This document shows, in pieces, positions 39,778 to 63,363 of a stretch of DNA of 64,000 nt. Origin of the DNA: Escherichia coli (GTDB taxonomy: Bacteria; Pseudomonadota; Gammaproteobacteria; Enterobacterales; Enterobacteriaceae); the NCBI RefSeq assembly GCF_013122565.1, contig NZ_CP053258.1. One strand, 5' to 3'. Under the pieces are notes generated by a model. That model searched no databases, had not been told where the DNA came from, and saw only the letters and a list, made by a program, of their open reading frames with translations. How positions within the stretch are numbered: the first letter of the stretch is position 1; every line of letters begins with the position of its first letter. The translations under genes were made by a program, and so were the position numbers.

Positions 39778-41315
<1,538 letters not shown>

Positions 41316-41552: not shown

Positions 41553-42638
41553 ATGTTCAAGCGTCGTTATGTAACATTGCTTCCCCTTTTTGTGTTGCTT
41601 GCCGCCTGTAGCAGCAAGCCAAAACCTACTGAGACTGAAACGACCACCGGAACGCCGTCTGGCGGCTTCCTGCTTGAGCCGCAGCACAATGTGATGCAGA
41701 TGGGCGGTGACTTCGCCAATAACCCGAATGCTCAGCAGTTCATCGACAAAATGGTGAACAAACACGGTTTCGATCGTCAGCAGTTGCAGGAAATTCTCTC
41801 CCAGGCGAAACGTCTGGATTCGGTACTGCGGCTGATGGATAACCAGGCACCAACCACATCGGTGAAACCGCCATCAGGTCCGAACGGCGCATGGCTGCGT
41901 TATCGCAAAAAATTTATTACGCCGGACAACGTGCAGAACGGTGTGGTTTTCTGGAATCAGTATGAAGATGCGTTGAATCGCGCGTGGCAGGTGTATGGCG
42001 TACCGCCGGAAATTATCGTCGGGATTATCGGCGTTGAAACCCGCTGGGGGCGCGTGATGGGGAAAACTCGCATCCTCGATGCGCTGGCAACGCTGTCATT
42101 TAACTACCCACGCCGCGCGGAATATTTCTCTGGCGAGCTGGAAACCTTCCTGCTGATGGCGCGCGACGAGCAGGACGATCCGCTCAATCTGAAAGGTTCC
42201 TTTGCCGGGGCGATGGGCTACGGACAGTTTATGCCGTCGTCTTACAAACAATATGCGGTAGATTTCAGCGGCGACGGGCATATCAACCTGTGGGATCCGG
42301 TTGATGCGATCGGTAGCGTGGCGAATTATTTCAAAGCGCATGGCTGGGTGAAAGGCGATCAGGTCGCGGTAATGGCAAACGGTCAGGCTCCAGGCTTGCC
42401 AAATGGCTTCAAAACCAGGTACAGCATTTCGCAGCTTGCTGCGGCAGGTTTAACGCCACAGCAGCCGCTGGGCAACCATCAACAAGCCAGCCTGCTGCGT
42501 CTGGATGTTGGAACAGGTTACCAGTACTGGTACGGTCTGCCGAACTTCTACACCATTACCCGTTATAACCACAGCACCCATTACGCAATGGCGGTCTGGC
42601 AGTTAGGACAAGCCGTGGCGCTGGCGCGCGTGCAGTAA
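41553..42638 (+). CDS. mltB: Membrane-bound lytic murein transglycosylase B (start MFKRRYVTLLPLFVLLAAC lipoprotein signal)
   Basis: Lipobox LLAACSS after the internal ATG; ORF track begins 35 codons upstream. Confidence 0.92.
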   Translation: MFKRRYVTLLPLFVLLAACSSKPKPTETETTTGTPSGGFLLEPQHNVMQMGGDFANNPNAQQFIDKMVNKHGFDRQQLQEILSQAKRLDSVLRLMDNQAPTTSVKPPSGPNGAWLRYRKKFITPDNVQNGVVFWNQYEDALNRAWQVYGVPPEIIVGIIGVETRWGRVMGKTRILDALATLSFNYPRRAEYFSGELETFLLMARDEQDDPLNLKGSFAGAMGYGQFMPSSYKQYAVDFSGDGHINLWDPVDAIGSVANYFKAHGWVKGDQVAVMANGQAPGLPNGFKTRYSISQLAAAGLTPQQPLGNHQQASLLRLDVGTGYQYWYGLPNFYTITRYNHSTHYAMAVWQLGQAVALARVQ

Positions 42639-42676
42639 CTATTTGCAAGAGGGGGGTTAAACTTCCCTCTCCTTTC

Positions 42677-42916
42677 TTACTGTTTATTCGAATTACGTAA
42701 TTGCTTGATTTTTTTCGACAGCGATATCGCATATCCCAGGCAGACAACGCCTAATGCAGCCTGGCCGAAGTCGAAAGGTTCAAGATAGCCAGAAGATAAA
42801 ATTTTACATACCACTGCAACCAGGGCGCTGACGCCGCCAATGGTGACCCACATGCGCATTTGCGTAGTCTGTTTGAGCACGTTTTGTGGGGGGTTATCCT
42901 TTTTCTTTGTTGCCAT
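42677..42916 (-). CDS. Candidate small inner-membrane protein (79 aa, two predicted TM helices, basic termini), not on my recalled K-12 gene list
   Basis: ATG preceded by GGGAGA Shine-Dalgarno about 8 nt upstream; two hydrophobic segments; sits in a 459-bp gap between mltB and pncC. Confidence 0.45.
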   Translation of the reverse strand: MATKKKDNPPQNVLKQTTQMRMWVTIGGVSALVAVVCKILSSGYLEPFDFGQAALGVVCLGYAISLSKKIKQLRNSNKQ

Positions 42917-43097
42917 TGCTTTTCTCTCCCTGTGAATACATATCAATGTGAACGCGGCATGGTAGCCTTTTTTCTTTACCGGTTGGTCGTAACAGTCTTA
43001 TTTCGGAATGCGACTCGTAAAATGAATCGCTCGTCCCCATCTTCTGCGGGAAAGTGCTATCTTGTCCGGCATAAATTTTTGACTGACAGAGGTTGTG

Positions 43098-43595
43098 ATG
43101 ACTGACAGTGAACTGATGCAGTTAAGCGAACAGGTTGGGCAGGCGCTGAAAGCCCGTGGCGCAACCGTAACAACCGCTGAGTCTTGTACCGGCGGTTGGG
43201 TAGCGAAAGTGATTACCGATATTGCCGGTAGCTCCGCCTGGTTTGAACGCGGATTTGTCACCTACAGTAACGAAGCCAAAGCGCAGATGATCGGCGTACG
43301 CGAAGAGACGCTGGCGCAGCATGGCGCGGTGAGCGAACCTGTCGTGGTGGAAATGGCGATAGGTGCACTGAAAGCGGCTCGTGCTGATTATGCCGTGTCT
43401 ATTAGTGGTATCGCCGGGCCGGATGGCGGCAGTGAAGAGAAGCCTGTCGGCACCGTCTGGTTTGCTTTTGCCACTGCCCGCGGTGAAGGCATTACCCGGC
43501 GGGAATGCTTCAGCGGTGACCGTGATGCGGTGCGTCGTCAGGCTACTGCGTATGCATTGCAGACCTTGTGGCAACAATTTCTACAAAACACTTGA
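43098..43595 (+). CDS. pncC: NMN amidohydrolase PncC (CinA-like C-terminal domain)
   Basis: 165-aa ORF (MTDSELMQLSEQ); immediately upstream of recA. Confidence 0.92.
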   Translation: MTDSELMQLSEQVGQALKARGATVTTAESCTGGWVAKVITDIAGSSAWFERGFVTYSNEAKAQMIGVREETLAQHGAVSEPVVVEMAIGALKAARADYAVSISGIAGPDGGSEEKPVGTVWFAFATARGEGITRRECFSGDRDAVRRQATAYALQTLWQQFLQNT

Positions 43596-44736
<1,141 letters not shown>

Positions 44737-44804
44737 TCGTCTGGTTTGATACTCAAGGGTCGCATCTGCGGCCCTTTTGCTTTTTTAAGTTGTAAGGATA
44801 TGCC

Positions 44805-45305
44805 ATGACAGAATCAACATCCCGTCGCCCGGCATATGCTCGCCTGTTGGATCGTGCGGTACGCATTCTGGCGGTGCGCGATCACAGTGAGCAAGAATTG
44901 CGACGTAAACTCGCGGCACCGATTATGGGCAAAAATGGCCCGGAAGAGATTGATGCTACGGCAGAAGATTACGAACGCGTTATTGCCTGGTGCCATGAAC
45001 ATGGCTATCTCGATGACAGCCGATTTGTGGCGCGCTTTATCGCCAGCCGTAGCCGCAAAGGTTATGGACCTGCGCGTATTCGTCAGGAACTGAATCAGAA
45101 AGGTATTTCCCGCGAAGCGACAGAAAAAGCGATGAGTGAATGTGACATCGACTGGTGCGCACTGGCGCGCGATCAGGCGACGCGAAAATATGGCGAACCT
45201 TTGCCAACTGTCTTTTCAGAAAAAGTTAAGATCCAGCGTTTTCTGCTCTATCGTGGCTATCTGATGGAAGATATCCAGGATATTTGGCGAAATTTTGCCG
45301 ACTGA
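44805..45305 (+). CDS. recX: RecA regulator RecX
   Basis: 166-aa ORF downstream of recA. Confidence 0.93.
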
Positions 45306-45432
45306 ACGCATACGGTATTTTACTTCCCAGTCAAGAAAACTTATCTTATTCCCACTTTTCAGTTACCAGCCCGGCGGTTAAGACACGCTGGAGCTGGTGG
45401 CGATATTTCGTTAGCTTGATTTCAGGATAATT

Positions 45433-48063
45433 ATGAGCAAGAGCACCGCTGAGATCCGTCAGGCGTTTCTCGACTTTTTCCATAGTAAGGGACATCAGGT
45501 AGTTGCCAGCAGCTCCCTGGTACCCCATAACGACCCAACTTTGTTGTTTACCAACGCCGGGATGAACCAGTTCAAGGATGTGTTCCTTGGGCTCGACAAG
45601 CGTAATTATTCCCGCGCTACCACTTCCCAACGCTGCGTGCGTGCGGGTGGTAAACACAACGACCTGGAAAACGTCGGTTACACCGCGCGTCACCATACCT
45701 TCTTCGAAATGCTGGGCAACTTCAGCTTCGGCGACTATTTCAAACACGATGCCATTCAGTTTGCATGGGAACTGCTGACCAGCGAAAAATGGTTTGCCCT
45801 GCCGAAAGAGCGTCTGTGGGTTACCGTCTATGAAAGCGACGACGAAGCCTACGAAATCTGGGAAAAAGAAGTCGGGATCCCGCGCGAACGTATTATTCGC
45901 ATCGGCGATAACAAAGGTGCGCCATACGCATCTGACAACTTCTGGCAGATGGGTGACACTGGTCCGTGCGGCCCGTGCACCGAAATCTTCTACGATCACG
46001 GCGACCACATTTGGGGTGGCCCTCCGGGAAGTCCGGAAGAAGACGGCGACCGCTACATTGAGATCTGGAACATCGTCTTCATGCAGTTCAACCGCCAGGC
46101 CGATGGCACGATGGAACCGCTGCCGAAGCCGTCTGTAGATACCGGTATGGGTCTGGAGCGTATTGCTGCGGTGCTGCAACACGTTAACTCTAACTATGAC
46201 ATCGACCTGTTCCGCACGTTGATCCAGGCGGTAGCGAAAGTCACTGGCGCGACCGATCTGAGCAATAAATCGCTGCGCGTAATCGCTGACCACATTCGTT
46301 CTTGTGCGTTCCTGATCGCGGATGGCGTAATGCCGTCCAATGAAAACCGTGGTTATGTACTGCGTCGTATCATTCGTCGCGCAGTGCGTCACGGTAATAT
46401 GCTCGGCGCGAAAGAAACCTTCTTCTACAAACTGGTTGGTCCGCTGATCGACGTTATGGGCTCTGCGGGTGAAGACCTGAAACGCCAGCAGGCTCAGGTT
46501 GAGCAGGTGCTGAAGACTGAAGAAGAGCAGTTTGCCCGTACTCTGGAGCGCGGTCTGGCGCTGCTGGATGAAGAGCTGGCAAAACTTTCCGGCGACACGC
46601 TGGATGGTGAAACTGCTTTCCGTCTGTACGACACCTATGGCTTCCCGGTTGACCTGACGGCTGATGTTTGTCGTGAGCGCAACATCAAAGTTGACGAAGC
46701 TGGTTTTGAAGCAGCAATGGAAGAGCAGCGTCGTCGGGCGCGCGAAGCCAGCGGCTTTGGTGCCGATTACAACGCAATGATCCGTGTTGACAGTGCATCT
46801 GAATTTAAAGGCTATGACCATCTGGAACTGAACGGCAAAGTGACCGCGCTGTTTGTTGATGGTAAAGCGGTTGATGCTATCAATGCAGGCCAGGAAGCTG
46901 TGGTCGTGCTGGATCAAACGCCATTCTATGCGGAATCCGGCGGTCAGGTTGGCGATAAAGGCGAACTGAAAGGCGCTAACTTCTCCTTTGCGGTGGAAGA
47001 TACGCAGAAATACGGCCAGGCGATTGGTCACATCGGTAAACTTGCTGCGGGTTCTCTGAAAGTGGGCGACGCGGTGCAGGCTGATGTTGATGAGGCTCGT
47101 CGCGCCCGTATTCGTCTGAATCACTCCGCAACGCACCTGATGCACGCTGCGCTGCGCCAGGTTCTGGGTACTCATGTATCGCAGAAAGGTTCACTGGTTA
47201 ACGACAAAGTGCTGCGCTTCGACTTCTCACACAACGAAGCGATGAAACCAGAAGAGATTCGTGCGGTCGAAGACCTGGTGAACGCACAGATTCGTCGCAA
47301 TTTGCCGATCGAAACCAACATCATGGATCTCGAAGCGGCGAAAGCGAAAGGTGCGATGGCGCTGTTCGGCGAGAAGTATGATGAGCGCGTACGCGTGCTG
47401 AGCATGGGCGATTTCTCCACCGAGTTGTGTGGCGGTACTCACGCCAGCCGCACTGGTGATATTGGTCTGTTCCGCATCATCTCTGAATCGGGTACTGCTG
47501 CAGGCGTTCGTCGTATCGAAGCGGTAACCGGAGAAGGCGCTATCGCCACCGTTCATGCAGACAGCGATCGCTTAAGCGAAGTCGCACATCTGCTGAAAGG
47601 CGATAGCAATAATCTGGCTGATAAAGTGCGCTCAGTACTGGAACGTACGCGTCAGCTGGAAAAAGAGTTACAACAGCTTAAAGAACAAGCTGCCGCACAG
47701 GAGAGCGCAAATCTTTCCAGTAAGGCAATTGATGTTAATGGTGTTAAGCTGTTGGTTAGCGAGCTTAGCGGTGTTGAGCCGAAGATGTTGCGTACCATGG
47801 TTGACGATTTAAAAAATCAGCTGGGGTCGACAATTATCGTGCTGGCAACGGTAGCCGAAGGTAAGGTTTCTCTGATTGCAGGCGTATCTAAGGACGTCAC
47901 AGATCGTGTGAAAGCAGGGGAACTGATTGGTATGGTCGCTCAGCAGGTGGGCGGCAAGGGTGGTGGACGTCCTGACATGGCGCAAGCCGGTGGTACGGAT
48001 GCTGCGGCCTTACCTGCAGCGTTAGCCAGTGTGAAAGGCTGGGTCAGCGCGAAATTGCAATAA
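45433..48063 (+). CDS. alaS: Alanine--tRNA ligase AlaS
   Basis: 876-aa ORF; recognised class II aaRS sequence. Confidence 0.97.
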
Positions 48064-48297
48064 TATAAGCGTCAGGCAATGCCGTGGACTCGCTTCACGG
48101 CATTCGCATTAACGCTATCGACAACGATAAAGTCAGGTTGAAGTTGTGTATATCGGCTAAACTTAGGTTTAACAGAATGTAATGCCATGACTGCTTAGAT
48201 GTAATGTGTTTGTCATTGCTTACTTTTTGGCGTTATATGATGGATAATGCCGGGATACAGAGAGACCCGACTCTTTTAATCTTTCAAGGAGCAAAGA

Positions 48298-48483
48298 ATG
48301 CTGATTCTGACTCGTCGAGTTGGTGAGACCCTCATGATTGGGGATGAGGTCACCGTGACAGTTTTAGGGGTAAAGGGCAACCAGGTACGTATTGGCGTAA
48401 ATGCCCCGAAGGAAGTTTCTGTTCACCGTGAAGAGATCTACCAGCGTATCCAGGCTGAAAAATCCCAGCAGTCCAGTTACTAA
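48298..48483 (+). CDS. csrA: Carbon storage regulator CsrA
   Basis: 61-aa [51 protein letters not shown]. Confidence 0.98.
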
Positions 48484-48489
48484 TCTTTC

Positions 48490-48516
48490 CGCGTCTCATC
48501 TTTATCGGTGAGACGC
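48490..48516 (+). terminator. Hairpin downstream of csrA (CGCGTCTCA..TGAGACGC)
   Basis: Inverted repeat read in sequence; no strong T-tract. Confidence 0.5.
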
Positions 48517-48708
48517 ACCCTCAAAATTTCTCCTTCACTCCATTGTCTTTTCGCTTTACTCCCGTTCATTCAACTTAAGTCTCCATTTTTTTGCATTACT
48601 GCTATCTGCCAGACCTCCGTTTTTCTGTTGATAAAACACTCTTTTTGACGTTTTTACAGACTAATTGAGCGTGAAGTGTGCAAACGATAAAAGTGTGGGA
48701 AAAATTGT

Positions 48709-48736
48709 TTGACTTATAAGTCTCAGAAAGTAATAT
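48709..48736 (+). promoter_or_regulatory. Promoter of the serV-argVYZQ tRNA operon (-35 TTGACT, 16-nt spacer, -10 TAATAT, GC-rich discriminator)
   Basis: Consensus-like hexamers with A-rich upstream tract and GCGCCACGC discriminator typical of stringently controlled stable-RNA promoters. Confidence 0.7.
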
Positions 48737-48798
48737 GTGCGCCACGCAGCGACGATGAGCGATAAACAAGTTCTTCGAAGCACTCGTAAGAGGCGTGT

Positions 48799-48891
48799 GG
48801 TGAGGTGGCCGAGAGGCTGAAGGCGCTCCCCTGCTAAGGGAGTATGCGGTTAAAAGCTGCATCCGGGGTTCGAATCCCCGCCTCACCGCCA
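48799..48891 (+). tRNA. serV: tRNA-Ser (anticodon GCU), long variable arm, encoded CCA
   Basis: GGTGAGGTGGCCGAGAGG...CTGCTAA anticodon loop...GGTTCGAATCC T-arm...CACCGCCA. Confidence 0.95.
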
Positions 48892-48894
48892 TTT

Positions 48895-48971
48895 GCATCC
48901 GTAGCTCAGCTGGATAGAGTACTCGGCTACGAACCGAGCGGTCGGAGGTTCGAATCCTCCCGGATGCACCA
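48895..48971 (+). tRNA. argV: tRNA-Arg (anticodon ACG), copy 1
   Basis: GCATCCGTAGCTCAGCTGGATAGAGTACTCGGCTACGAACCGAGCGGTCGGAGGTTCGAATCCTCCCGGATGCACCA. Confidence 0.95.
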
Positions 48972-49105
48972 TATTCTACGTACTTTCAGCGATGAAGGTA
49001 TGGAAGAGGTGGCGGTAATAACCGCAGGCACCAGGGAGGATAACGTTGCTTTAGCAACGGCCCGAAGGGCGAGCCGCAAGGCGAGTAATCCTCCCGGATG
49101 CACCA
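48972..49105 (+). repeat. Spacer unit A (about 134 nt) ending in a pseudo-copy of the tRNA-Arg 3' end (AATCCTCCCGGATGCACCA); second copy at 49525-49657
   Basis: Two copies of roughly 85% identity by eye, both ending in the last 18-19 nt of tRNA-Arg; internal hairpins retained in both. Confidence 0.8.
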
Positions 49106-49169
49106 TCTCTTACTTGATACGGCTTTAGTAGCGGTATCAAAAAATCTGCAGTAAAGTAAGTTTCCCGAT

Positions 49170-49246
49170 GCATCCGTAGCTCAGCTGGATAGAGTACTCG
49201 GCTACGAACCGAGCGGTCGGAGGTTCGAATCCTCCCGGATGCACCA
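49170..49246 (+). tRNA. argY: tRNA-Arg (ACG), copy 2
   Basis: Identical 77-nt tRNA-Arg sequence. Confidence 0.95.
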
Positions 49247-49308
49247 TCTCTTACTTGATATGGCTTTAGTAGCGGTATCAATATCAGCAGTAAAATAAAT
49301 TTTCCGAT

Positions 49309-49385
49309 GCATCCGTAGCTCAGCTGGATAGAGTACTCGGCTACGAACCGAGCGGTCGGAGGTTCGAATCCTCCCGGATGCACCA
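49309..49385 (+). tRNA. argZ: tRNA-Arg (ACG), copy 3
   Basis: Identical 77-nt tRNA-Arg sequence. Confidence 0.95.
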
Positions 49386-49447
49386 TCTCTTAATTGATAT
49401 GGCTTTAGTAGCGGTATCAATATCAGCAGTAAAATAAATTTCCCGAT

Positions 49448-49524
49448 GCATCCGTAGCTCAGCTGGATAGAGTACTCGGCTACGAACCGAGCGGTCGGAG
49501 GTTCGAATCCTCCCGGATGCACCA
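49448..49524 (+). tRNA. argQ: tRNA-Arg (ACG), copy 4
   Basis: Identical 77-nt tRNA-Arg sequence. Confidence 0.95.
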
Positions 49525-49657
49525 TATTCTCCGAAATCTTCAGCAATGAAGGTATCGAAGAGGTAGCGGAATTAACCGCAGGCACCAGGGAGGATAACGT
49601 TGCGCCAGCAACGGTCCGAAGGGCGAACGCCAGTGAGTCATCCTCCCGGATGCACCA
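49525..49657 (+). repeat. Spacer unit A, second copy, downstream of the last tRNA-Arg
   Basis: See 48972-49105; ends in ATCCTCCCGGATGCACCA. Confidence 0.8.
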
Positions 49658-49804
49658 TCTTCTCCCAAAAATTTCCTTCAAAAATATCTCATTTCTAAAT
49701 AACTACTTTATCCATTTCCTGAATTTTCTTCTCCTTCTCCATCAGCGACAAAATCAAGCAATTACGCTAAAGTAGCGTCATATTTTTCGACTTGCGAGAA
49801 GACC

Positions 49805-50371
49805 ATGTACGAGCGTTATGCAGGTTTAATTTTTGATATGGATGGCACAATCCTGGATACGGAGCCTACGCACCGTAAAGCGTGGCGCGAAGTATTAGGG
49901 CACTACGGTCTTCAGTACGATGTTCAGGCAATGATTGCGCTTAATGGCTCGCCCACCTGGCGTATTGCTCAGGCGATTATTGAGCTGAATCAGGCCGATC
50001 TCGACCCGCATGCGTTAGCGCGTGAAAAAACAGAAGCAGTAAGAAGTATGCTGCTGGATAGTGTCGAGCCGCTTCCTCTTGTTGAAGTGGTGAAAAGTTG
50101 GCATGGTCGTCGCCCAATGGCTGTAGGAACGGGGAGTGAAAGCGCCATCGCTGAGGCATTGCTGGCGCATCTGGGATTACGCCGTTATTTTGACGCTGTC
50201 GTCGCTGCTGATCACGTCAAACACCATAAACCCGCGCCAGACACATTTTTGTTGTGCGCGCAGCGTATGGGCGTGCAACCGACACAGTGTGTGGTCTTTG
50301 AAGATGCCGATTTCGGTATTCAGGCGGCCCGTGCAGCAGGCATGGACGCTGTGGATGTTCGCTTGCTGTGA
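49805..50371 (+). CDS. yqaB: HAD-family sugar phosphatase YqaB
   Basis: 188-aa ORF with HAD motif I (FDMDGT). Confidence 0.9.
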   Translation: MYERYAGLIFDMDGTILDTEPTHRKAWREVLGHYGLQYDVQAMIALNGSPTWRIAQAIIELNQADLDPHALAREKTEAVRSMLLDSVEPLPLVEVVKSWHGRRPMAVGTGSESAIAEALLAHLGLRRYFDAVVAADHVKHHKPAPDTFLLCAQRMGVQPTQCVVFEDADFGIQAARAAGMDAVDVRLL

Positions 50372-50796
50372 GTGAAGCGTTATCGCTTTTCTCGTTGTTT
50401 GCCAGTAGTTTTCTCAGCGCTACACTATTACCCGGCAACTCCGAAGTCGTGCTGGTGGCAATGTTGCTTTCCGGGATCAGTCATCCCTGGGTTTTAGTTT
50501 TAACAGCAACAATGGGTAATAGCCTTGGAGGGTTAACTAACGTTATCCTTGGGCGTTTCTTTCCATTGCGTAAAACATCGCGCTGGCAAGAGAAAGCTAC
50601 CGGCTGGCTGAAACGCTATGGTGCAGTCACGCTATTATTAAGCTGGATGCCCGTGGTTGGCGATTTACTGTGTCTGTTAGCGGGATGGATGCGCATCTCC
50701 TGGGGACCGGTAATCTTTTTTTTGTGCCTTGGTAAAGCGTTACGCTATGTTGCAGTTGCAGCAGCTACCGTTCAGGGCATGATGTGGTGGCACTAA
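50368..50796 (+). CDS. yqaA: Inner-membrane protein YqaA (DedA/SNARE-associated family)
   Basis: 142-aa membrane ORF overlapping the yqaB stop. Confidence 0.88.
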   Translation: MSEALSLFSLFASSFLSATLLPGNSEVVLVAMLLSGISHPWVLVLTATMGNSLGGLTNVILGRFFPLRKTSRWQEKATGWLKRYGAVTLLLSWMPVVGDLLCLLAGWMRISWGPVIFFLCLGKALRYVAVAAATVQGMMWWH

Positions 50797-50841
50797 TTGT
50801 AGGCCTGCACATATGGTCACCATTACAGTTATGCTAATTAA

Positions 50842-52425
<1,584 letters not shown>

Positions 52426-52433
52426 CAGAAAAG

Positions 52434-52506
52434 AAAAAGGCCACTCGTGAGTGGCCAAAATTTCATCTCTGAATTCAGGGATGATGATAACAAATGCGCG
52501 TCTTTC
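52434..52506 (-). ncRNA. micA: MicA (SraD) Hfq-dependent sRNA, antisense in the gshA-luxS gap
   Basis: Minus-strand sequence GAAAGACGCGCATTTGTTATCATCATCCCTGAATTCAGAGATGAAATTTTGGCCACTCACGAGTGGCCTTTTT matches MicA as I recall it, including the terminator hairpin and U-tail. Confidence 0.9.
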
Positions 52507-52574
52507 ATATACTCAGACTCGCCTGGGAAGAAAGAGTTCAGAAAATTTTTAAAAAAATTACCGGAGGTGGCTAA

Positions 52575-53090
52575 ATGCCGTTGTTAGATAGCTTCACAGT
52601 CGATCATACCCGGATGGAAGCGCCTGCAGTTCGGGTGGCGAAAACAATGAACACCCCGCATGGCGACGCAATCACCGTGTTCGATCTGCGCTTCTGCGTG
52701 CCGAACAAAGAAGTGATGCCAGAAAGAGGGATCCATACCCTGGAGCACCTGTTTGCTGGTTTTATGCGTAACCATCTTAACGGTAATGGTGTAGAGATTA
52801 TCGATATCTCGCCAATGGGCTGCCGCACCGGTTTTTATATGAGTCTGATTGGTACGCCAGATGAGCAGCGTGTCGCTGATGCCTGGAAAGCGGCAATGGA
52901 AGACGTGCTGAAAGTGCAGGATCAGAATCAGATCCCGGAACTGAACGTCTACCAGTGTGGCACTTACCAGATGCACTCGTTGCAGGAAGCGCAGGATATT
53001 GCGCGTAGCATTCTGGAACGTGACGTGCGCATCAACAGCAACGAAGAACTGGCGCTGCCGAAAGAAAAGTTGCAGGAACTGCACATTTAG
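52575..53090 (+). CDS. luxS: S-ribosylhomocysteine lyase LuxS (AI-2 synthase)
   Basis: 171-aa ORF ([14 protein letters not shown]) with HTLEH metal motif. Confidence 0.96.
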
Positions 53091-53107
53091 TCAGTGGAAC
53101 AAAAGAA

Positions 53108-53140
53108 GCCGGGCAGGTGACACCACCGCCCGGTTTTTTT
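53108..53140. terminator. Bidirectional intrinsic terminator shared by luxS (+) and the HD-Pnk gene (-): GCCGGGC..GCCCGG plus T7
   Basis: Hairpin and T-tract read in sequence; the HD-Pnk stop codon overlaps the T-tract. Confidence 0.75.
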
Positions 53141-54251
53141 ACCTTTCAATCACCCGATACTCCACGCTATGTGCTTCATCAGGTTGAGGAACTTCCAGCC
53201 TTGAGGCCATCCGCAGCACGACCGCTTCAGGAACTGCATACTCGCGTCTGGCATTTTGCTGCTTCCATTGCGTCCATGGCACTTCCAGATAAACGATTTT
53301 TACTCGTGCGCCGTAAGCCGTAAACAGACTGATGAGCTGGCTACGCAGCTGGCGGGTAATGTTCGTTGCATTCCAGATGAACGGCTTTTTCTGGCGTAAA
53401 AAAACGCGTGCCTCTTCTTTTGCCTGTTGCACAATACGCCCGGTGGCGGTTTTGTCGTCCGGACTGGCATTGATTCGCCGCCGCATATCATCAAGGCTGA
53501 TAACGTCAATTCCCTGGCACTGTTCACTGATATAGCGATCTTTGCCCATACCCGGTAAGCCACACAGCAAAATAACCTCAAAAGGTTCAGCCCCCCAGGG
53601 AACAAAATCAGGAGAACTTTGCTCATGAGTCAGGTAGTGCCAGCGTGCGGAATCAGAAACGAACGGGCGCACTTTTCCCCAACACTGTTGCTCCTGGCAA
53701 AACAGCTCGAACAGATCGATGCGTTCCAGCATTGATTGCTGATCCGGGCTTTGGCGACCAAGCAGATCGGCACGAGCAAGCAAAGCGAGCAGACGCGTGT
53801 CGATGCGCATTGCAGCCGTGAGCAGCAAACGCTCCGGTTCCGGACGTTCCAGTAACCACAGCGGTAACCCATGCAGACGCACCAGCGCAACAATTTGCTC
53901 GCGTAGCACGAACGGCGTAGGGATATCGCGCCATAAAATTTGTCGGGCCGTCAATTCGCCCCGCCGAGCATGGCCAGGCGACTGAATACGTCCGTTTTCC
54001 TGCACGGTAGTGCTGCGCTTTTCAACATCATGCAATAACGCCGCCGCCCATAAAACTTCCTGCTGTTGAGCGGGGAGTTGCTGGAATTCTGGCAGAGTAA
54101 CGAGGGCGTTCAGCACCATTTCGGTATGCACGCCGACGTCGCCTTCACCATGATGCTCCGGGTCTTGTGGCGTGTGATGCATCTCCTCAACCCAACTGAA
54201 ACGCTGGAGTAGTGTCGACCAGCGTTTATCGTCGGTAAGCTGCCAAATCAT
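53139..54251 (-). CDS. Bifunctional RNA/DNA end-healing enzyme candidate: N-terminal HD-domain phosphoesterase fused to a C-terminal P-loop polynucleotide 5'-OH kinase (HD-Pnk type)
   Basis: 370-aa ORF; HD motifs ([18 protein letters not shown], later His/Asp); Walker A GLPGMGKD followed by an acidic DVISLDD segment; ATGA overlap with the upstream ligase gene; absent from the K-12 luxS-emrB junction as I recall it. Confidence 0.75.
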
Positions 54252-54955
54252 GACTGTTCTCCATAAGCGAACTCATGGGCCATCCGCGCCCGTTGCCAGT
54301 GTCGTTTCCAGTGCACGGTGGTTTTGACATGATTTTTGCGCACATACTTGAAGACGTTATGCGAAAAGTCAGCGACGGAAAACGCATCACGATTCCGGCT
54401 GACAATGCCTTCCAGCGTACAGGGTTGCCCGGTTTGTGTATCCCAGGGATCGAACGCGCCGCGCGCATTGGTCAGTGCCAGAAAATCACGTTGCCAGCTT
54501 TTTTCATCATTCCCCGGCTGCGGACCGGAGATTTCGGGAACGCAGGGGAAATCAAACAGAGCGGCGTAAAACTGCACCTCTTCCCAGCTCAGCCACATAT
54601 CCTGGCAGCGAACGGCAAACAGGTAAAAGTCCTGTTCCAGCGCGCGGTATTCAATGGAATGAACGGCGTAGAGATTTTCACCAAACAGTTCCAGATCGCC
54701 GAGATCGTTTTTCAGCAGTTGCCAACGCTGGCGAATTTTATAAGTCCATGCCGACTGCGTAGGCGCAGCATGGGAACGGGCAAACACGCCGTAGCGGTTA
54801 AGGCAGTTATTTTCGCCGTCGAGTTTTTCTGTGTGCACCAGTTGCGCAATGGCCTGTAAATCCTGCCAGTAATCGGCGTTAATGCGGTCATCGCTGGTGG
54901 TGCCAGGGGAGAAAGGATAATGCCAGGTTCTCCCGTATTTTCGTTGGGTATTCAT
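54248..54955 (-). CDS. ATP-dependent RNA ligase-like covalent nucleotidyltransferase (small Rnl-type)
   Basis: 235-aa ORF with motif I KLDG (Lys44), FGEN motif III-like, EGIV motif IV, FKYVRK motif V; stop overlaps the HD-Pnk start. Confidence 0.75.
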
Positions 54956-55176
54956 AATAATCCATTATTTTGTGTGTAATAAATGTACGCCCGCGAGGGT
55001 GCGAGTTATGGGGTTAAAAGAAAAATGTGAGTATCACCCGCGAAAGCGAGGGCGAAGGAAAAAGAGAATTAACAACCTGAGCGAATGCTCAGAACCGGTT
55101 AATGGTGAATGGAAGAGTTTGGGGCGGCGAAAAGATACACCGAATGAGTGGATAAAACAACCGTTTGCAGAATGAG

Positions 55177-55202
55177 CAAATAAAAAGGGAGCCGAAGCTC
55201 CC
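55177..55202 (-). terminator. Intrinsic terminator of emrB (GGGAGC-TTCG-GCTCCC hairpin plus T-rich tail on the minus strand)
   Basis: Hairpin 10 nt downstream of the emrB stop. Confidence 0.75.
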
Positions 55203-55212
55203 TTTGACAACC

Positions 55213-56751
55213 TTAGTGCGCACCGCCTCCGCCGCCACCTGCGCCAAAGGGCGGTTTAGCAAACCACACCAGCCCCAGCAGGACGAGGAATATCCCGGCT
55301 GACATCCAGAAGATCTCATTGGCGGAAATAATCAGCCCCTGGTTAGTGATCTGCTGGGCAATCCAGCCTGATGCCTGCTGTTGCGTCATCCCAAGCCCTT
55401 CCAGTTGACTATACATCGCCTGGGCATTCGGGTTGAACGGGTTTACCGACTCAGTCAACTGCGCATGGTGCATCGACTCGCGGTTGGTCCACATGGTAGT
55501 GGTTATCGATGTGCCGATAGACCCCGCCAGCGTTCGCGTAAAGTTGGAGAGGCTCGATGCCGCCGCCAGTCGTTCCGGTGGCAAACCAGACAGCGTAATG
55601 GTGGTCAGCGGCATAAAGAAGCAGGCCACCGCAAACCCCTGGATAAACTGCGGCCATGCCGACGCGCCAAAATCCATACCTGGTTCAAAGGTATAGGCAC
55701 GCCAGTAGAAGCAGACGGCATACATAATAAAGCTGAAGGTTACCAGCCGCCGCATATCCAGTTTATGCGCGAAGCGGCCGATAATTGGCGACAGGATCAC
55801 CGGAATAATCCCTACCGGCGCAGAGGCCAAACCTGCCCAGGTCGCCGTGTAACCGTAGACCTCCTGCAACAACTGCGGCAGCAGAACAATAGCGCCGAAG
55901 TAGAGCATATACGCGAGGCTGATACACAAGCAGCCGATGGTGAAGTTGCGCGACTTAAACAACGACAGATCGACTATCGGGTTATCGTCGGTCAGCTCCC
56001 AGACAATCAGGAAGCAGATAGCCACCACCGCCACCACGGTAAGGATGATAATTTCCTGTGATGAAAACCAGTCCAGCTCTTTACCGCGGTCGAGCATAAT
56101 CTGCAGGCTGCCGATACCAATAACCAGCAGTGCCAGCCCCACGGCATCAATTCGCCGCCGTTCGGTGCGGGTTTCACGTCCGCGCAGAGTTTGCAGTGTC
56201 ATCAACACCACCGCCACGCCAATCGGCACGTTGATGAAGAATATCCAGCCCCAGTGGTAATTATCGCTGATATATCCGCCGAGGATTGGGCCGCAAATTG
56301 GCGCGACAATCACCGTCATCGACCACAACGCCAGCGCGATTGAGCGTTTGGCTGGCGGGTAATTATTCAGCAATAGACTTTGCGAAAGCGGGATCAACGG
56401 CCCGGCGACAATCCCCTGAATCACGCGGAAGAAGATCAGCATATTCAGGCTGCTGGAGACACCACACGCCCACGACGCAATAGCAAAGGCGATGGTTGAC
56501 CAGAGGAACAGTTTCACTTCCCCGACGCGCTTTGCCAGCCAGCCGGTAAGCGGGATCGAGATGGCATTCGCCACCCCGAAAGAAGTGATTACCCACGTTC
56601 CCTGGCTGAGCGATGAGCCCAGATTCCCGGCGATAGTGGGGATCGCCACGTTAGCAATGGTGGAGTCCAGCACCTGCATGAATGTCGCCAGTGACAGCGC
56701 AATCGTCATAATGACCAGTTGCGCGCCTTCCAGCGGTTTTTGCTGTTGCAT
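55213..56751 (-). CDS. emrB: Multidrug efflux MFS transporter EmrB (start MQQQKPLEG)
   Basis: 512-aa 14-TM MFS ORF; 16-nt gap after emrA. Confidence 0.94.
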   Translation of the reverse strand: MQQQKPLEGAQLVIMTIALSLATFMQVLDSTIANVAIPTIAGNLGSSLSQGTWVITSFGVANAISIPLTGWLAKRVGEVKLFLWSTIAFAIASWACGVSSSLNMLIFFRVIQGIVAGPLIPLSQSLLLNNYPPAKRSIALALWSMTVIVAPICGPILGGYISDNYHWGWIFFINVPIGVAVVLMTLQTLRGRETRTERRRIDAVGLALLVIGIGSLQIMLDRGKELDWFSSQEIIILTVVAVVAICFLIVWELTDDNPIVDLSLFKSRNFTIGCLCISLAYMLYFGAIVLLPQLLQEVYGYTATWAGLASAPVGIIPVILSPIIGRFAHKLDMRRLVTFSFIMYAVCFYWRAYTFEPGMDFGASAWPQFIQGFAVACFFMPLTTITLSGLPPERLAAASSLSNFTRTLAGSIGTSITTTMWTNRESMHHAQLTESVNPFNPNAQAMYSQLEGLGMTQQQASGWIAQQITNQGLIISANEIFWMSAGIFLVLLGLVWFAKPPFGAGGGGGGAH

Positions 56752-56767
56752 CACACGCACCTCTGGA

Positions 56768-57940
56768 TTAGCCAGCGTTAGCTTTTACGATATCGTCGAT
56801 CAGTTTATTGACAGGTGCCAGGCTGATTTCACGCGCGGTGCTTACCGCTACCGGTGTGGAACGTACTTTATTTGCCAGTACCTGACCGTCACGGTTAGTG
56901 GTATTGACGCTCACCAGCGTGGACAAACCGATACGCAGCGGGTATTGCTCGAGCTGTTTCTGGTCCAGTTCAATACGAACAGGCAGACGCTGAACGACTT
57001 TGATCCAGTTACCGGTGGCATTTTGCGCCGGAAGCAGTGAGAACGCGCTACCCGTGCCCATATCCAGACCAACCACTTTACCGGTGTATTTCACATCATC
57101 GCCGTAAATATCGGTGGTGATGGTGACCGGCTGACCGATACGCATATTGGCAATCTGCGTCTCTTTAAAGTTGGCATCCACCCACATATTGGTGGCTGGA
57201 ACGACCGCCATCAGCGGCGTCGTTGGGCTAATTTGTGCCCCAGGCTGTACCGCGCGGCGGGAGACATAACCGGTCATCGGACTGACAATACGGGTACGCT
57301 CCAGCGCCAGCCAGGCGTTACGTACTTCGGTGGCAGCCTGTTGCACGGCAGGCTGATCTTCCAGTTTAGTCCCCAGAATCATCGCCTGATTGGCATTGTA
57401 TTGTTGAATAGCGACGTCCAGTTGTGCCTGGGCACTGGTGACGGCGTCGCGGGCGTGTTGCAGCTCTTCGCGACCAATCAGGTTGGCATTGCCCAGCGGC
57501 ACACGGCGGTTGTAGTCGCTTTGTGCTTTCGCGAGGGCGATTTTTTGCACCTCAATATTCGCCTGCAACTGTTTGCTGTTAATCATCAGCTGGTGGGTTT
57601 GGCGAACGCTGGAAGCCAGTGCAGTTTTGGCTTTTTCAAACGCCTGGCGAGCATCTGTCGGGTCGAGAGTGACCAGCACGTCGCCTTCTTTTACAAAATC
57701 GGTGTTATCGGCCCAGACTTTCGTCACGCTGCCAGACACCTGAGACATAATTTGAATCTGATTCCCTGCCACGTATGCGTCATCGGTTTCTTCGAAGTGA
57801 CGCAGTACCAAAAACCAATAAATCCCTATCGCTACGGCAATAATTATAAAGAGCAAGGTGAGAAGGAGGAGCAGACGCTTACGTTTGCCGCTCTTCTTTA
57901 CCGGTTGCTGCGGGGTTTGAGTCTCCGCATTTGCGCTCAT
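56768..57940 (-). CDS. emrA: Multidrug efflux periplasmic adaptor EmrA (start MSANAETQ)
   Basis: 390-aa ORF with single N-terminal TM and HlyD-like coiled coil. Confidence 0.94.
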   Translation of the reverse strand: MSANAETQTPQQPVKKSGKRKRLLLLLTLLFIIIAVAIGIYWFLVLRHFEETDDAYVAGNQIQIMSQVSGSVTKVWADNTDFVKEGDVLVTLDPTDARQAFEKAKTALASSVRQTHQLMINSKQLQANIEVQKIALAKAQSDYNRRVPLGNANLIGREELQHARDAVTSAQAQLDVAIQQYNANQAMILGTKLEDQPAVQQAATEVRNAWLALERTRIVSPMTGYVSRRAVQPGAQISPTTPLMAVVPATNMWVDANFKETQIANMRIGQPVTITTDIYGDDVKYTGKVVGLDMGTGSAFSLLPAQNATGNWIKVVQRLPVRIELDQKQLEQYPLRIGLSTLVSVNTTNRDGQVLANKVRSTPVAVSTAREISLAPVNKLIDDIVKANAG

Positions 57941-58066
57941 ATTGTTCTCCACGATCTTCTTAACTCATCGGCTGAGCCGACCTGCTTGCCAAAAAGGCCA
58001 GCATGTTGCGATGCTGGCCAGTCATTTTTTCTTTTATAAATCTGGATTTTTGAGCGAGATGACGCG

Positions 58067-58597
58067 TTAGCTCATCGCTTCGAGAACCACACCGTCTTGT
58101 TCCATCTGGTCGAGACGGGAGAGCAATTTGCGGGTGATTTGCTCGAGCTGATCTTTTTCTGTTGTACTGAGCGCGGACCAGAGTTGATGCAGGCAGTTAT
58201 GCTGCGGTGGTAAAACCTCGCGCAAAAACTCGTGACCTTTTTCCGTTAATTGCAGATGCAGGCAGCGGCGATCGTTATCGCTTTCACGACGTTCGATCCA
58301 ACCGCGTTTTTCCAGTTCATCGGCAATACGCGTCGCGTTGGTACGGGATGATCCAAGAGCACAACTCAATTCAGAAGGCTGAATACTGTGGTTTTCCTGA
58401 GACTCCAGCGTAATCAACGCCATAAACAACGTCTCGTTAATCCCCTGAGCCTTCAGCATTTTATTGCGGTTCTCCAGCAGCTTGCTTTGCATGTGCATGC
58501 AAAGACGAGTCAGAAGGATCTCCTGATAAGGAAAATCTTCGTGGCGGCTGGCGCGAAATTTTAGCATTTGTTCAATGGGCGTAAACGAACTATCCAT
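58067..58597 (-). CDS. emrR: MarR-family repressor EmrR (MprA)
   Basis: 176-aa MarR-type ORF upstream of emrAB. Confidence 0.94.
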
Positions 58598-58687
58598 TTG
58601 GGTATGACCTCATTAATTTCAGCCGATATAGTAACGACAGTGACAAATAAAGTAAATGTATTGTTTTAGAAAAATGATTCTTATGGG

Positions 58688-59023
58688 TTATATAATCGCC
58701 ATCACTTTCCAGGCGAGCCCGTAGGCCAGCGCACTAAGCAGTGTTGGGATGATAATGCTGCGTGTTTTATAGAAACTGGCACCCAGTACCGCGAAGCCGA
58801 CCAGCGTGGGCACGAAACGGCGTGTATCGTGCATCACTTCTGGTGCGGTAGAGACAACCAGCAGAGCGCATATCGAGGCGATGCCAATGGTGTCGAGCAA
58901 TATGCCTATCACGCCACGTTTGGTTGGGCGGGCATTACCCACACGCAGGCGCAGCGGCAAATAGCGGAAACAATAATTCGCCGTGCCAACCAGTAACCCA
59001 AGCAGCAAAACCTCATAGCTCAT
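58688..59023 (-). CDS. ygaH: L-valine exporter small subunit YgaH (AzlD-like)
   Basis: 111-aa membrane ORF overlapping ygaZ. Confidence 0.88.
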
Positions 59024-59750
59024 CGGGCGCTCCTTGCCAGAATGCCTGGATTAACGCAGTGAGGCAGCCACAGACAATGCCTGCCAGAATGGCGACGGGA
59101 ATAGAAAATAGCGTTACGCCTGCAAGGGCACCAACTAACGCTGCGGTAACGCAAAGAGATTGTTTGCGCTGGAAAGAGGCGAGCAGGAAACTCATAAAGA
59201 GTGCCGGAAGCATAAAACCTAATGCAGCTTCAACGGCGGGATAACCTTGCAGCAAGCCGCTGCCGGAGAATGCCCCTATTACCGTACCAAATACCCACGA
59301 TGACCATGAACTGAAGGCAATGCCGATCATCCAGTTCTCGCTCCAGCGGCGATTATTGCGTACCAGTTTTGCGGTTGCGGCGGCAAAAACCTCATCCGTC
59401 AGGCCAAACGCCCATAGGGCGGTTTTCGATTTTTGCAGACGCTGAATAATACGGCTACGCAGTGACGGGCCATACAAAACATGGCGAACATCCATTGCCA
59501 TGACGGTCAGTGCAGCAACCCACAAACTACTCCCGGCTGCCAGCATCGCGGTAATGACGAACTGGCTCGCGCCTGCATAAATGATGCAGGAGAAAAAAAC
59601 GCTTTCGAGAGGAGAGAATCCCAGACGGGTCGCATTCAGACCGAACGCAAAGGCCACCGGAATATAACTAATAACAATCGGTAAACTGTCTTTGCATCCT
59701 TCCATGAAGGTCGCCGAACCAGGAGCAGGCAGTGGAGTAGGGCTTTCCAT
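59013..59750 (-). CDS. ygaZ: L-valine exporter large subunit YgaZ (AzlC-like)
   Basis: 245-aa membrane ORF. Confidence 0.88.
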
Positions 59751-59873
59751 AGAGTGTACGCTTAACGATTGTTAATATTATAAATAGACTGAATGAATAT
59801 CTTAACCTTATCAGACTGATGGGCTTCTTAACACCCTTATAAGTGTAAAGCCACGAAAACGGTTGCTGATTGC

Positions 59874-61058
59874 TTAATTTGCGGCTTCCTGACGATGAAA
59901 ACCTCGCCACCAGACCAGTAAGTTAACCAGGGCAATCGTCGCGCCAGCCAGACAAACGCCAGCCCAACCGCCATGTTGCCAGGCTGAGGCTGAAATTAGC
60001 GATCCGGCGGCACCGCCAATAAAGTAGCTGGTCATGTAACCTGCGGTCAGGCGATTACGCGCATCAGGATGTATTCGATAAATTACCGTCTGGTTAGTGA
60101 TATGCACGCCCTGCACGGTGAGGTCCAGCACCAGGATGCCGATAATCAGCGCCAGTACGGAAGTGTGACCAAACCAGATTGCCAGCCATGAAAGTAACAG
60201 CAGAAGCAGACCGAAAGTTGTTGTGTGGTGCGATTTGCCCTTGTCGGCAAAACCGCCCGCCGGACGAGCGCCCAACGCTCCGGCAGCTCCCGCAAGTCCA
60301 AACAGACCAATTACACCATCGCTGTAGTTAAAAGGCGGTGCGGCAAGCAAAAAGGCCATTGAGGTCCAGAGAATGCTGAAGTTGGCAAAGGTCAGGCAGC
60401 CCAGCAACGCGCGGGTGCGCAGGATCTTATCGCTGATAAACATGCTGAAAACGGAACCAAGCAACTGTGGGTAGTTGAGGTGGGTTTCTGATTTCATTTG
60501 TGGCAGACCACGCCATAATGCCAGCGCCATCAGTGCCATTAACACCGAGGCAACCCAAAAGACGGTGCGCCAGCCGCCGAGGTTTGCCAGCAATCCGGCA
60601 ACGGTCCGTGCGAGTAAGATCCCCAGCAGCAGACCGCTCATAATGGTGCCAACCACTTTGCCGCGTTTGTCCGGTGAAGCCAGCGTCGCTGCCAGCGGAA
60701 CCAGAATTTGTGCCACGACTGAGAATAAACCGGTTAATGCCGTACCGAGGATCATCATCGCCAGCGACTGACTGCTGGCGGTAATCAACATGCCGCATGC
60801 CGCCAGTAAGGTCATCGAGACAATCAGGCGGCGGCGTTCAAACATATCACCGAGGGGAACAAGAAACAGCAGACCGGCGGCATAGCCCAACTGCGCGGCG
60901 GTAACAATAAAGCCTGCCGAACTGGCGGAAAGGGAAAAGTTACGCGCGATGGTGTCGAGCAATGGCTGGGCGTAATAGTTACTGGCTACCGCCAGACCGG
61001 TGGCGATAGACATCAGCACGATCAGCGCCGGGCTAAGCTCATGATTAGGTTTAGTCAT
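59874..61058 (-). CDS. ygaY: MFS transporter YgaY, apparently intact (394 aa)
   Basis: 12-TM-like MFS ORF without interruption; I recall the K-12 counterpart as a split pseudogene. Confidence 0.8.
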   Translation of the reverse strand: MTKPNHELSPALIVLMSIATGLAVASNYYAQPLLDTIARNFSLSASSAGFIVTAAQLGYAAGLLFLVPLGDMFERRRLIVSMTLLAACGMLITASSQSLAMMILGTALTGLFSVVAQILVPLAATLASPDKRGKVVGTIMSGLLLGILLARTVAGLLANLGGWRTVFWVASVLMALMALALWRGLPQMKSETHLNYPQLLGSVFSMFISDKILRTRALLGCLTFANFSILWTSMAFLLAAPPFNYSDGVIGLFGLAGAAGALGARPAGGFADKGKSHHTTTFGLLLLLLSWLAIWFGHTSVLALIIGILVLDLTVQGVHITNQTVIYRIHPDARNRLTAGYMTSYFIGGAAGSLISASAWQHGGWAGVCLAGATIALVNLLVWWRGFHRQEAAN

Positions 61059-61159
61059 TATTTTTGTTCATCAGGTGATGATTAAGCTGGAAATCAATAA
61101 TAGCGGATGTTGATGAATCTGGGATGAAAGATAGATTGTTGAAATGTGCGGTGTGGTTT

Positions 61160-61240
61160 GTAGGCATGATAAGACGCGCCAGCGTCGCATCAGGCATTGT
61201 GTACAGAGCGGCGGATGCGGCGAAAACGCCTTATCCGCCC
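61160..61240. repeat. REP/BIME elements between ygaY and proX
   Basis: GTAGGCATGATAAGACGCGCCAGCGTCGCATCAGGCA and GGCGGATGCGGCGAAAACGCCTTATCCGCCC palindromes. Confidence 0.75.
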
Positions 61241-61249
61241 GAATAAAAA

Positions 61250-62242
61250 TTACTTCTGCGCTGCCAGCGCCTCATTCACCCAGCCATCGAACTGCTGCTG
61301 GTGGGCTTTGATCCAGCCATCAACATGGCCCTGAATATCTCCTTCTGAGGCTTTGCCGTCATGCATAATGGCGTTCTGGGCGTTAATATCTGCCACTGGC
61401 AACTGCATAATGGCAAACAGTTTCGCTGCTGCCGGGTTTTTCTCGGCCCAGACTTTGTTGGCAACGATATGCATGGTGCTGACCGGGAAGCCGTAATTCG
61501 CGCCATTCGGCAGTTTGGTATCGGCATTTTTATCGCCCGGCAGTGCAGAGAACGGCACCTGCAACCAGACCACATCTTTCCCTGGCTTCAGCTCATTACT
61601 CACCCAGTACGGCGTCCAGGTGTAGTAAAACACCGGCTTACCCTCTTTGTAACGACTGATGGTGTCAGCCATCATCGCCGCGTAGTTCCCCTGATTATGC
61701 GTCACGGTATTGGTCAGTTCATACGCGGCAAGCTGGTGGTTGATCGCACCTTCGCAGCCCCAGCCTGGGTTACAGCCGGTTAAATCCGCTTTACCGTCGC
61801 CGTTGGTATCGAACAGTTTGGCGATCTTCGGATCTTTCAGTTGTGCGATGTTGGTGATTTTGTACTGGTCGGCGGTTTTCTTATCGATCAGGTAGCCCTG
61901 TGCCGCGCCGTTAACAAATACCCCTTCACGATAAAATTTCTTCTCGCCACCGGCAGCTTCGTACATGTTGTCATGCAGCGGCGTCCAGTTCACGGCGGTG
62001 AAGGTTGCATCGCCGGAAGCAAGCGAGGTGTAGCCAACGTTGTAATCCACTTCGCTGGGTTTGTTGACGGTATAACCTAATTTCTCCAGCGCACGACTGA
62101 CCAGCAGCGTCTGGAAGGTTTCTTCAGTGATGGTGCTCTGAACTGGATTAACAGTAATGCCTTTGCCCGGCAGATCGGCAGCAAAAGTTTGTGTAGAGAT
62201 AAGCGTGGCAAACGCTGTCGCAAAAAGTACGCTATGTCGCAT
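61250..62242 (-). CDS. proX: Glycine betaine/proline ABC transporter periplasmic binding protein ProX (start [12 protein letters not shown])
   Basis: 330-aa ORF with signal peptide; ORF track begins 16 codons upstream. Confidence 0.93.
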
Positions 62243-62298: not shown

Positions 62299-63363
62299 TT
62301 ACTTAATGAATGGGCGGGTCAGCAGACCGACAGGGCCAGTGGTGTACCAGCGACGGTTGCCGCGACTGCGTGAGTCGCGCCCAACGGCCTGCGTCAGGCG
62401 ATCGAGGATAATGGCGAGGATCACAATCCCGACGCCGCCAACGGTGGCAAGCCCCATATCCAGACGACCGATACCGCGAAGTACCATCTGACCCAGCCCG
62501 CCGACGGCAATCATCGAGGCAATGACCACCATAGAAAGGGCCAGCATCAGCGTCTGGTTAACGCCCGCCATAATGGTCGGCATCGCCAGCGGTAACTGAA
62601 CTTTGAACAGCATCTGACGCGGGCTGGCACCGAATGAGCGCGAGGCTTCAATCAGATCCGCGGGAACCTGGTTAATCCCCAGAATGGTCAGACGGATAAT
62701 CGGCGGCAGAGCAAAGATGATCGTCACCACCACGCCCGGCACGTTACCGATACCAAACAGCATGACGATTGGCACCAGATAAACAAACGCAGGCGTGGTC
62801 TGCATGGCATCAAGCAGTGGACGAATAATTTTCGCCGCTCGCGGACTTCTCGCCAGCCAGATCCCCAACGGCAAACCGATGACGATACAGAACAGCAGGG
62901 CGGTTAACACCAGCGCCAGAGTAACCATTGCCTGCGACCAGGCACCGATTGCGCCGATGGCAATCAGCGAAACCAGCGTCGCCACGCCCATTCCGACCCC
63001 GGAAATCTGCCAGGCGATGAGAGCGAAAACGATAATCGCCACCGGCGCGGGCATACCCAGCAGCAATTGCTGGAAACCGTTGAGGATATAATCAACCGGA
63101 ACGCGCACGCCCTGGAAGACGGGACGGAAATGGGTAACGACCCAGTCGATCCCTTCAGTGACCCAACTGTCGAGCGGGATCAGCGTTTTATGGAACGGAT
63201 CGAGAATATTAAAATGCTCGACGTTTGGCGCAGGCGTACTGGTCAGCCAGTCAGCACCACCGCCGTCAGTCGGTGCAGTCGCCGGTGTACCCCAGGCGTC
63301 TGCGGATTGTGCGGCACTGTCCGTCGCTGGCGTGGTATCCCACGGATTATTTTGATCAGCCAT
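62299..63363 (-). CDS. proW: Glycine betaine/proline ABC transporter permease ProW
   Basis: 354-aa membrane ORF; overlaps proV stop. Confidence 0.93.

Follow-up and report, generated by a model that had tools for sequence, protein, structure and literature searches.

Does the stretch of Escherichia coli DNA analysed here, a window of 64,000 nucleotides from contig NZ_CP053258.1 (assembly GCF_013122565.1), carry an intact ygaY gene where the laboratory strain K-12 carries a broken one, and, if so, which of the two states is the ancestral one? In the literature, ygaY is known as a K-12 pseudogene that serves as a control deletion and as a neutral chromosomal integration site. A sequence-only reading of the window had proposed that a continuous 394-aa MFS transporter ORF lies at the position of the disrupted K-12 ygaX/ygaY, and that this strain retains the ancestral functional transporter. 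The ORF listing agrees exactly with the coordinates and length given there and adds the strand, which that reading had left out: the 394-codon frame, with an ATG start, runs on the minus strand at 59874..61058, where the end coordinate takes in the stop codon. In random sequence, the probability of 394 uninterrupted sense codons is (61/64)^394, or about 6e-9, so the ORF is not a product of chance. The gene and its neighbors are as follows.

59874..61058, minus strand: ygaY coding sequence, an intact MFS transporter of 394 codons plus stop (Pfam MFS_1, E = 1e-40)
61250..62242, minus strand: proX, the upstream neighbor and last gene of proVWX, 993 nt, also directly upstream in K-12 and in PapRG-06-5
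62299-63363, minus strand: proW
63356 onwards, minus strand: proV
59013..59750, minus strand: ygaZ, the downstream neighbor, an AzlC-family L-valine exporter subunit
58688-59023, minus strand: ygaH, beyond ygaZ
58067-58597, minus strand: emrR
56768-57952, minus strand: emrA, with emrB on the same side

All these neighbors share the strand of ygaY, and the order proVWX-ygaY-ygaZH-emrRAB is the E. coli arrangement, including the position of ygaY in K-12. The location between proX and ygaZ, together with near-identity to the K-12 reading frames, places the gene in the ygaY orthologue group. An annotation as 'MFS transporter' already exists at the same position in other E. coli; the exact window protein occurs in 23,559 blocks of a public collection, with a constant gene context in the loci that we read. 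Within the neighboring YgaZ, residue 7 is Leu in the window and Gln in K-12 (MESPTPQPAPG).

The disruption that the sequence-only reading had assumed for K-12 is real. In the K-12 MG1655 assembly, the RefSeq/PGAP annotation labels the gene 'MFS transporter, frameshifted' and gives it 1178 nt versus 1185 in the intact form; in NC_000913.3, ygaY (b2681) is a pseudogene at 2808316-2809493, with a sequence identical to that of the MG1655 assembly. With the gene and its spacers as query, the megablast match correspondingly spans 1492 bases in K-12 versus 1499. Pairwise alignment with the K-12 locus traced this difference to one lesion, a single 7-bp deletion in K-12, which separates it from the frame in the window; the K-12 frame is broken, and an uninterrupted K-12 ORF, which would have spoken against the earlier proposal, is absent. 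The deletion falls on the following element.

60790..60803, minus strand: perfect 7-bp tandem repeat GCGGCAT/GCGGCAT, gene nucleotides 256-269, codons 86-90 (Ala-Ala-Cys-Gly-Met)

Across this site the window reads CTG GCGGCAT GCGGCAT GTTG, and K-12 keeps one GCGGCAT. The K-12-type pseudogene, defined by the 7-bp loss and a frameshift at codon 89, is therefore not what the window contains: both repeat units are present, in one frame. In place of the gene, K-12 has an ORF of 88 aa (ygaX), corresponding exactly to residues 1-88, and one of 305 aa (ygaY), corresponding to residues 90-394; the ygaX stop and the ygaY start overlap in ATGTTGA, and Gly89 alone is missing. The break lies inside a helix of the structural model that spans residues 75-94. 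By our own reading, in which the DSSP helices were assigned to TM1-12, this helix would be TM3, and the lesion would cut within helix 3. Given the tandem repeat structure, replication slippage would be the most likely cause of the loss of one repeat unit in K-12.

The distribution of the two states across the species separates them sharply. Of 5426 complete E. coli genomes searched by megablast with the gene and its spacers, 5413 contain the ygaY region over its full length. We then compared a 67-nt probe spanning the K-12 junction, and a reciprocal 74-nt probe from the window, with 5401 complete E. coli genomes. The K-12 junction was matched at 100% in 353 of them, and the other 5048 keep the intact length (74 nt, with a 7-base gap relative to the probe); the reciprocal probe gave the complementary picture. 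Every carrier that we inspected (68 of 68) is K-12 or another laboratory strain, and carriers of the deletion include MG1655, C600, J53, DH5alpha, DH1, NCM3722, RR1, and HMS174. Since this holds for all inspected carriers, the deletion is best regarded as a marker of the K-12 lineage rather than a recurrent natural polymorphism. K-12 assemblies with an uninterrupted ORF and outgroups with the 7-bp-shorter state were both looked for, and neither was found. Five natural-isolate loci carry a ygaY allele without any nucleotide difference from K-12 besides the 7 bp, and at one of them (L015) the 7-nt gap is the sole difference from K-12 in the whole proX-to-ygaZ interval of 3.2 kb. With natural alleles that are separated from K-12 by no more than these 7 bp, the K-12 lesion is very young in evolutionary terms. 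The window does retain the gene, as had been proposed, but no special retention is involved, as essentially every non-K-12 E. coli is intact. The call of an intact ygaY was correct, and already known, with the intact state as the norm and K-12 as the exception.

Outgroups bear on the direction of the change. Orthologues of 391-394 aa are present in E. fergusonii (97-98% identity), E. marmotae (98%), E. albertii (95-96%), Citrobacter (93%), and Salmonella (93%), as well as in Shigella flexneri and S. sonnei (99%). A perfect tandem duplication, taken in isolation, can be read as an insertion as readily as a deletion, and one could accordingly suppose that the intact form is derived, the short form of K-12 being ancestral and a 7-bp duplication having fused two genes. 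This would require that the short form, present in only 353 of 5401 genomes with the inspected carriers all K-12 or laboratory strains, preceded a full-length in-frame protein that is found in all outgroup genera. It would also have to accommodate an imperfect repeat of the same length, with Gly88, in most E. coli alleles, and a family alignment that is continuous across the repeat-bearing helix. We give a derived intact form virtually no chance, and on the sequences compared, the outgroups and the population counts already refute it. Deletion from an ancestral intact gene is the reading that we follow below.

The coding sequence itself has been strongly constrained. K-12 ygaY (b2680 plus b2681, P76628) shares its locus and synteny with the window, and once the 7 bp are restored its protein is 100% identical to that of the window; the differences amount to one GCGGCAT fewer, the split ORFs, the pseudogene call, and 33 nucleotide differences, all of them synonymous. 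The one 'nonsynonymous' change that the Nei-Gojobori method returned for this comparison is an artefact of path averaging at a Leu codon (CTT versus TTG) and was discarded. Over 17 alleles, the mean dN/dS by the same method is ~0.02. Together, the outgroup orthologues, the genome counts, and dN/dS show the intact state to be ancestral and kept by purifying selection.

Comparison of alleles around the repeat further clarified the background in which the deletion occurred. Only alleles that encode Cys88 (TGC) have two identical repeat units; alleles with Gly88 read GCrGCAG/GCGGCAT, and this imperfect form is found in most E. coli alleles as well as in E. fergusonii, E. albertii, and Citrobacter. 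The 74-nt stretch of the window is 100% identical in 682 genomes. To judge from these alleles, the window carries the undeleted, slippage-prone Cys88 configuration from which the K-12 lesion arose. Among intact genomes, at most 8 of the 74 bases vary around the repeat, and differences there among the fetched alleles are synonymous except for Cys88/Gly88. Compensating frameshifts were considered as a source of this local diversity and ruled out, all fetched alleles being 1185 nt long with one stop.

Whether the intact gene is also in use is a separate matter, and its flanking sequences were examined with this in view. The relevant elements are listed below.

61059..61249, minus strand: proX-ygaY spacer, 191 nt; AT-rich (36% GC) over the 100 nt nearest ygaY
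~61159-61240, minus strand: REP-like multi-copy element in the proX-proximal part, just downstream of proX; median of 9 places per genome for the 1.5-kb query
59777..59805, minus strand: TTAAGA-17-TATAAT, a candidate ygaZH promoter with 10 of 12 consensus matches; regional count not above shuffled expectation

In the promoter scan, no consensus sigma-70 promoter was found upstream of ygaY, and the regional counts were not above the shuffled expectation; the 100 nt before the ygaY ATG contain no obvious Shine-Dalgarno sequence. As promoter and terminator counts did not exceed those of shuffled sequence, the scan is uninformative on expression. In K-12, ygaY transcripts are low, and the locus is reported to take part in an H-NS bridge with the downstream regulatory element of proVWX, with insulation by StpA; the same study calls ygaY cryptic (Rashid et al. 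2023). Such observations would suit a gene whose ORF is intact while it is silenced, for instance by H-NS/StpA, or left untranslated, so that the K-12 deletion would amount to neutral decay. The AT-rich 100 nt upstream without a recognizable consensus promoter or Shine-Dalgarno sequence, the H-NS/StpA association with low, insulated transcription at K-12 ygaY, and the fact that K-12 has lost the gene with no reported phenotype all fit this account; from the last of these it follows that ygaY is dispensable in the laboratory. It is countered by a dN/dS of ~0.02, by the absence of any non-synonymous change among the 33 differences that separate the window from restored K-12, by full length in 5413 of 5426 genomes, and by an amino-acid identity that is still 93% in Salmonella and Citrobacter. 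Conservation of this kind is incompatible with a long-term lack of function, and we consider a silent or untranslated gene improbable. The strong purifying selection argues instead for use of ygaY under some condition. Hence, of the phrase 'ancestral functional' in the sequence-only reading, the first word stands on the 5048 intact genomes among 5401 and on the 391-394-aa orthologues, whereas the second is less direct: from the low dN/dS, the retention of family residues, and a confident, complete MFS model, we infer that intact YgaY is functional. Literature on ygaY and its orthologues yielded nothing on expression of, or transport by, the intact gene, and treated only the K-12 pseudogene as a neutral locus.

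Several further features of the spacers were recorded. Some genomes have ~100 bp extra in the proX-ygaY spacer, seen as two-piece hits of ~1599 bp (e.g. H12, H17, and H19). For the REP-like element, one hit (H40) matched positions 55-91 of the query only. The candidate ygaZH promoter sits in the 123-nt AT-rich spacer between ygaY and ygaZ and hints that ygaZH may be transcribed from a promoter of its own, independently of ygaY. An evolved K-12 line acquired a point mutation in this same ygaY-ygaZ spacer (PMC4786092).

At the level of the protein, membership in the major facilitator superfamily is clear. The Pfam MFS_1 profile (PF07690) scores 140.3 bits (cut-off 33.4, E = 9.7e-41) over residues 17-273 and a second stretch. 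In TCDB, YgaY (P76628) has the number 2.A.1.36.3 and belongs to the acriflavin-sensitivity (YnfM) family (PMC5417439). By BLASTP, the YgaY and K-12 YnfM (b1596) sequences match over their full length at 26% identity across 409 columns (E = 6e-21); this full-length similarity and the TCDB listing together place it in 2.A.1.36. YnfM, the founder of that family, shares with YgaY the 12-TM MFS fold and a similar set of weak NCBIfam matches. However, it is a distant paralogue rather than an orthologue, and YgaY has a signature of its own, consisting of NYYxQPLL in TM1 together with R151, D312, Q316, and N322.

To define what is conserved, we used 1152 relatives recovered at E <= 1e-30 among 1.84 billion cluster representatives, and aligned 100 full-length members of 33-56% identity with the window protein (101 sequences). 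The window protein retains all residues that are invariant or near-invariant among the 100 homologues. Conserved across the family are the TM1 signature Y28/Q31/P32/L33, R151 (in 100 of 101), D312, Q316, N322, and R336. The TM2-TM3 loop contains motif A as P68-L-G70-D71-M-F-E-R75-R76-R77, with E in place of the motif's second G, and its conservation among the 101 members is 100% for P68, 91% for G70, 98% for D71, and 82% for R75. Its counterpart in the TM8-TM9 loop reads D272-K-G-K, in which D272 is conserved. The antiporter motif C of TM5 (G-x3-G-P-x2-G-G) gave no regular-expression match, and the protein is devoid of any GP dipeptide. Likewise, scores against all NCBIfam DHA1 models are far below the cut-offs: 52 versus 200.9 for TIGR00710, 64 versus 401 for PRK03545, and 39 versus 479 for PRK11652. 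YgaY thus departs from DHA1 (TCDB 2.A.1.2) both in lacking motif C and in its scores against the Bcr/CflA, SotB, EmrD, and Cmx models. The best partial NCBIfam match, confined to the N-terminal half, is to the aromatic acid/H+ symporter TIGR00895 (E = 5e-22), and when the protein alone is compared with PDB sequences, the glucose symporter GlcP comes first. With the family profile as query against PDB sequences, SotB (E = 1e-17) and EmrD are among the best matches.

The AlphaFold2 model, computed with the family alignment as input, is all-helical (pLDDT 95.7, pTM 0.93). Foldseek identified SotB, MdfA, and NorA as the closest PDB folds, with TM-scores of 0.80-0.87 over ~385 residues at 15-18% identity; the model and these matches together describe a 12-TM MFS fold of two six-helix bundles. 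The DHA1 antiporters SotB (6kkk), MdfA (4zow), NorA (8tte), and EmrD (2gfp), which are the closest in fold or in profile sequence, share motif A with YgaY; in contrast, they stand at only 15-18% identity and possess a motif C that is absent from YgaY.

On this basis, YgaY would operate as a rocker-switch (alternating-access) transporter driven by the proton gradient, and most likely exports a small, possibly or even probably anionic, metabolite. The prediction of export draws on the analogy with YnfM and with the DHA1 structural neighbors SotB, MdfA, and NorA. YnfM exports glutarate and other dicarboxylates; in E. coli BL21(DE3) it is reported to be the glutarate exporter, and its reported sensitivity to CCCP indicates proton coupling (PMC12622518). 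With an identity of only 26%, the YnfM substrate cannot be transferred to YgaY. The membrane-embedded residues R151, D312, Q316, N322, and R336 are the probable sites of substrate binding and proton coupling. Motif C being absent, the export direction gains no support from that signature, and the same absence is consistent with the opposite polarity, in which YgaY would be an importer of the solute:H+ symporter type. The resemblance of its N-terminal half to the TIGR00895 aromatic acid/H+ symporters, and GlcP as the best single-protein match in the PDB, point the same way. Yet the matches that cover the full length, whether by sequence, profile, or fold, are to the exporters SotB, EmrD, MdfA, NorA, Bcr/CflA, and Cmx; YnfM, the only characterized member of the TCDB family mentioned in the cited papers, is an exporter; and the adjoining ygaZH and emrAB provide a context of exporters. 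We therefore regard import as unlikely, though as the most serious of the alternatives considered here, and favor export.

Taken as a whole, the joint reading of an intact, ancestral 12-helix MFS ygaY, of a recent slippage loss in K-12 only, and of a predicted pmf-driven exporter of a small metabolite is one that we hold with very high confidence. To what was known, the analysis adds small details: the loss of a tandem-repeat unit, the clean split in helix 3, and the very young age of the lesion. Further possibilities may be sketched. The K-12 gene may be less than a complete null, in that translational coupling at ATGTTGA might allow an MFS transporter to be made in two pieces, lacking only Gly89; alternatively, the perfect Cys88 repeat might act as a hotspot at which slippage now and then inactivates ygaY in natural populations. 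YgaY could also export a metabolite tied to osmoprotectant uptake (proVWX) and valine export (ygaZH). We consider these ideas, a two-piece transporter or natural off-switch and a neighbor-linked metabolite, highly speculative and very improbable. The observation itself is an ordinary one, as thousands of other E. coli genomes already have the intact gene annotated automatically as 'MFS transporter'. Its practical meaning is that work in K-12, the standard laboratory strain, gives no access to a transporter that is strongly conserved in Escherichia, Citrobacter, and Salmonella.

Elsewhere in the window, positions 53096-55211, between emrB and luxS, hold an accessory cassette of 2.1 kb that is absent from K-12-like loci. 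It contains two genes.

54248-54955, minus strand: RNA ligase family protein (PF09414)
53139-54251, minus strand: 370-aa protein; AAA_33 kinase-like domain at residues 226-355, N-terminal region HD-like by eye

Of 5426 complete E. coli genomes, 999 carry this cassette, which from its domain content looks like an RNA-repair-type gene pair. A tRNA cluster at 48799-49524 consists of Ser(gct) followed by four Arg(acg), the last three of which are 139 bp apart; BLAST against other loci indicates that the copy number or register of the tRNA units varies between E. coli strains.

The window is also somewhat removed from the genomes available for comparison. Its closest complete RefSeq E. coli genomes reach 97.7% over 20 kb and 98.8% over the ygaY region; an alignment in one place to at least 80% of positions 40000-59750 is found in just 75 genomes. 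Among the differences private to the window, 20 of 29 fall at third codon positions and a few are intergenic; ygaH (336 nt) holds 8 of the 29, some of them at codon positions 1 and 2. An artificial or recoded origin of the window was considered and rejected, as the private differences extend to intergenic sequence and to the first and second codon positions, in proportions that are natural. The window appears to come from a natural lineage, E. coli-like but poorly represented among these genomes.
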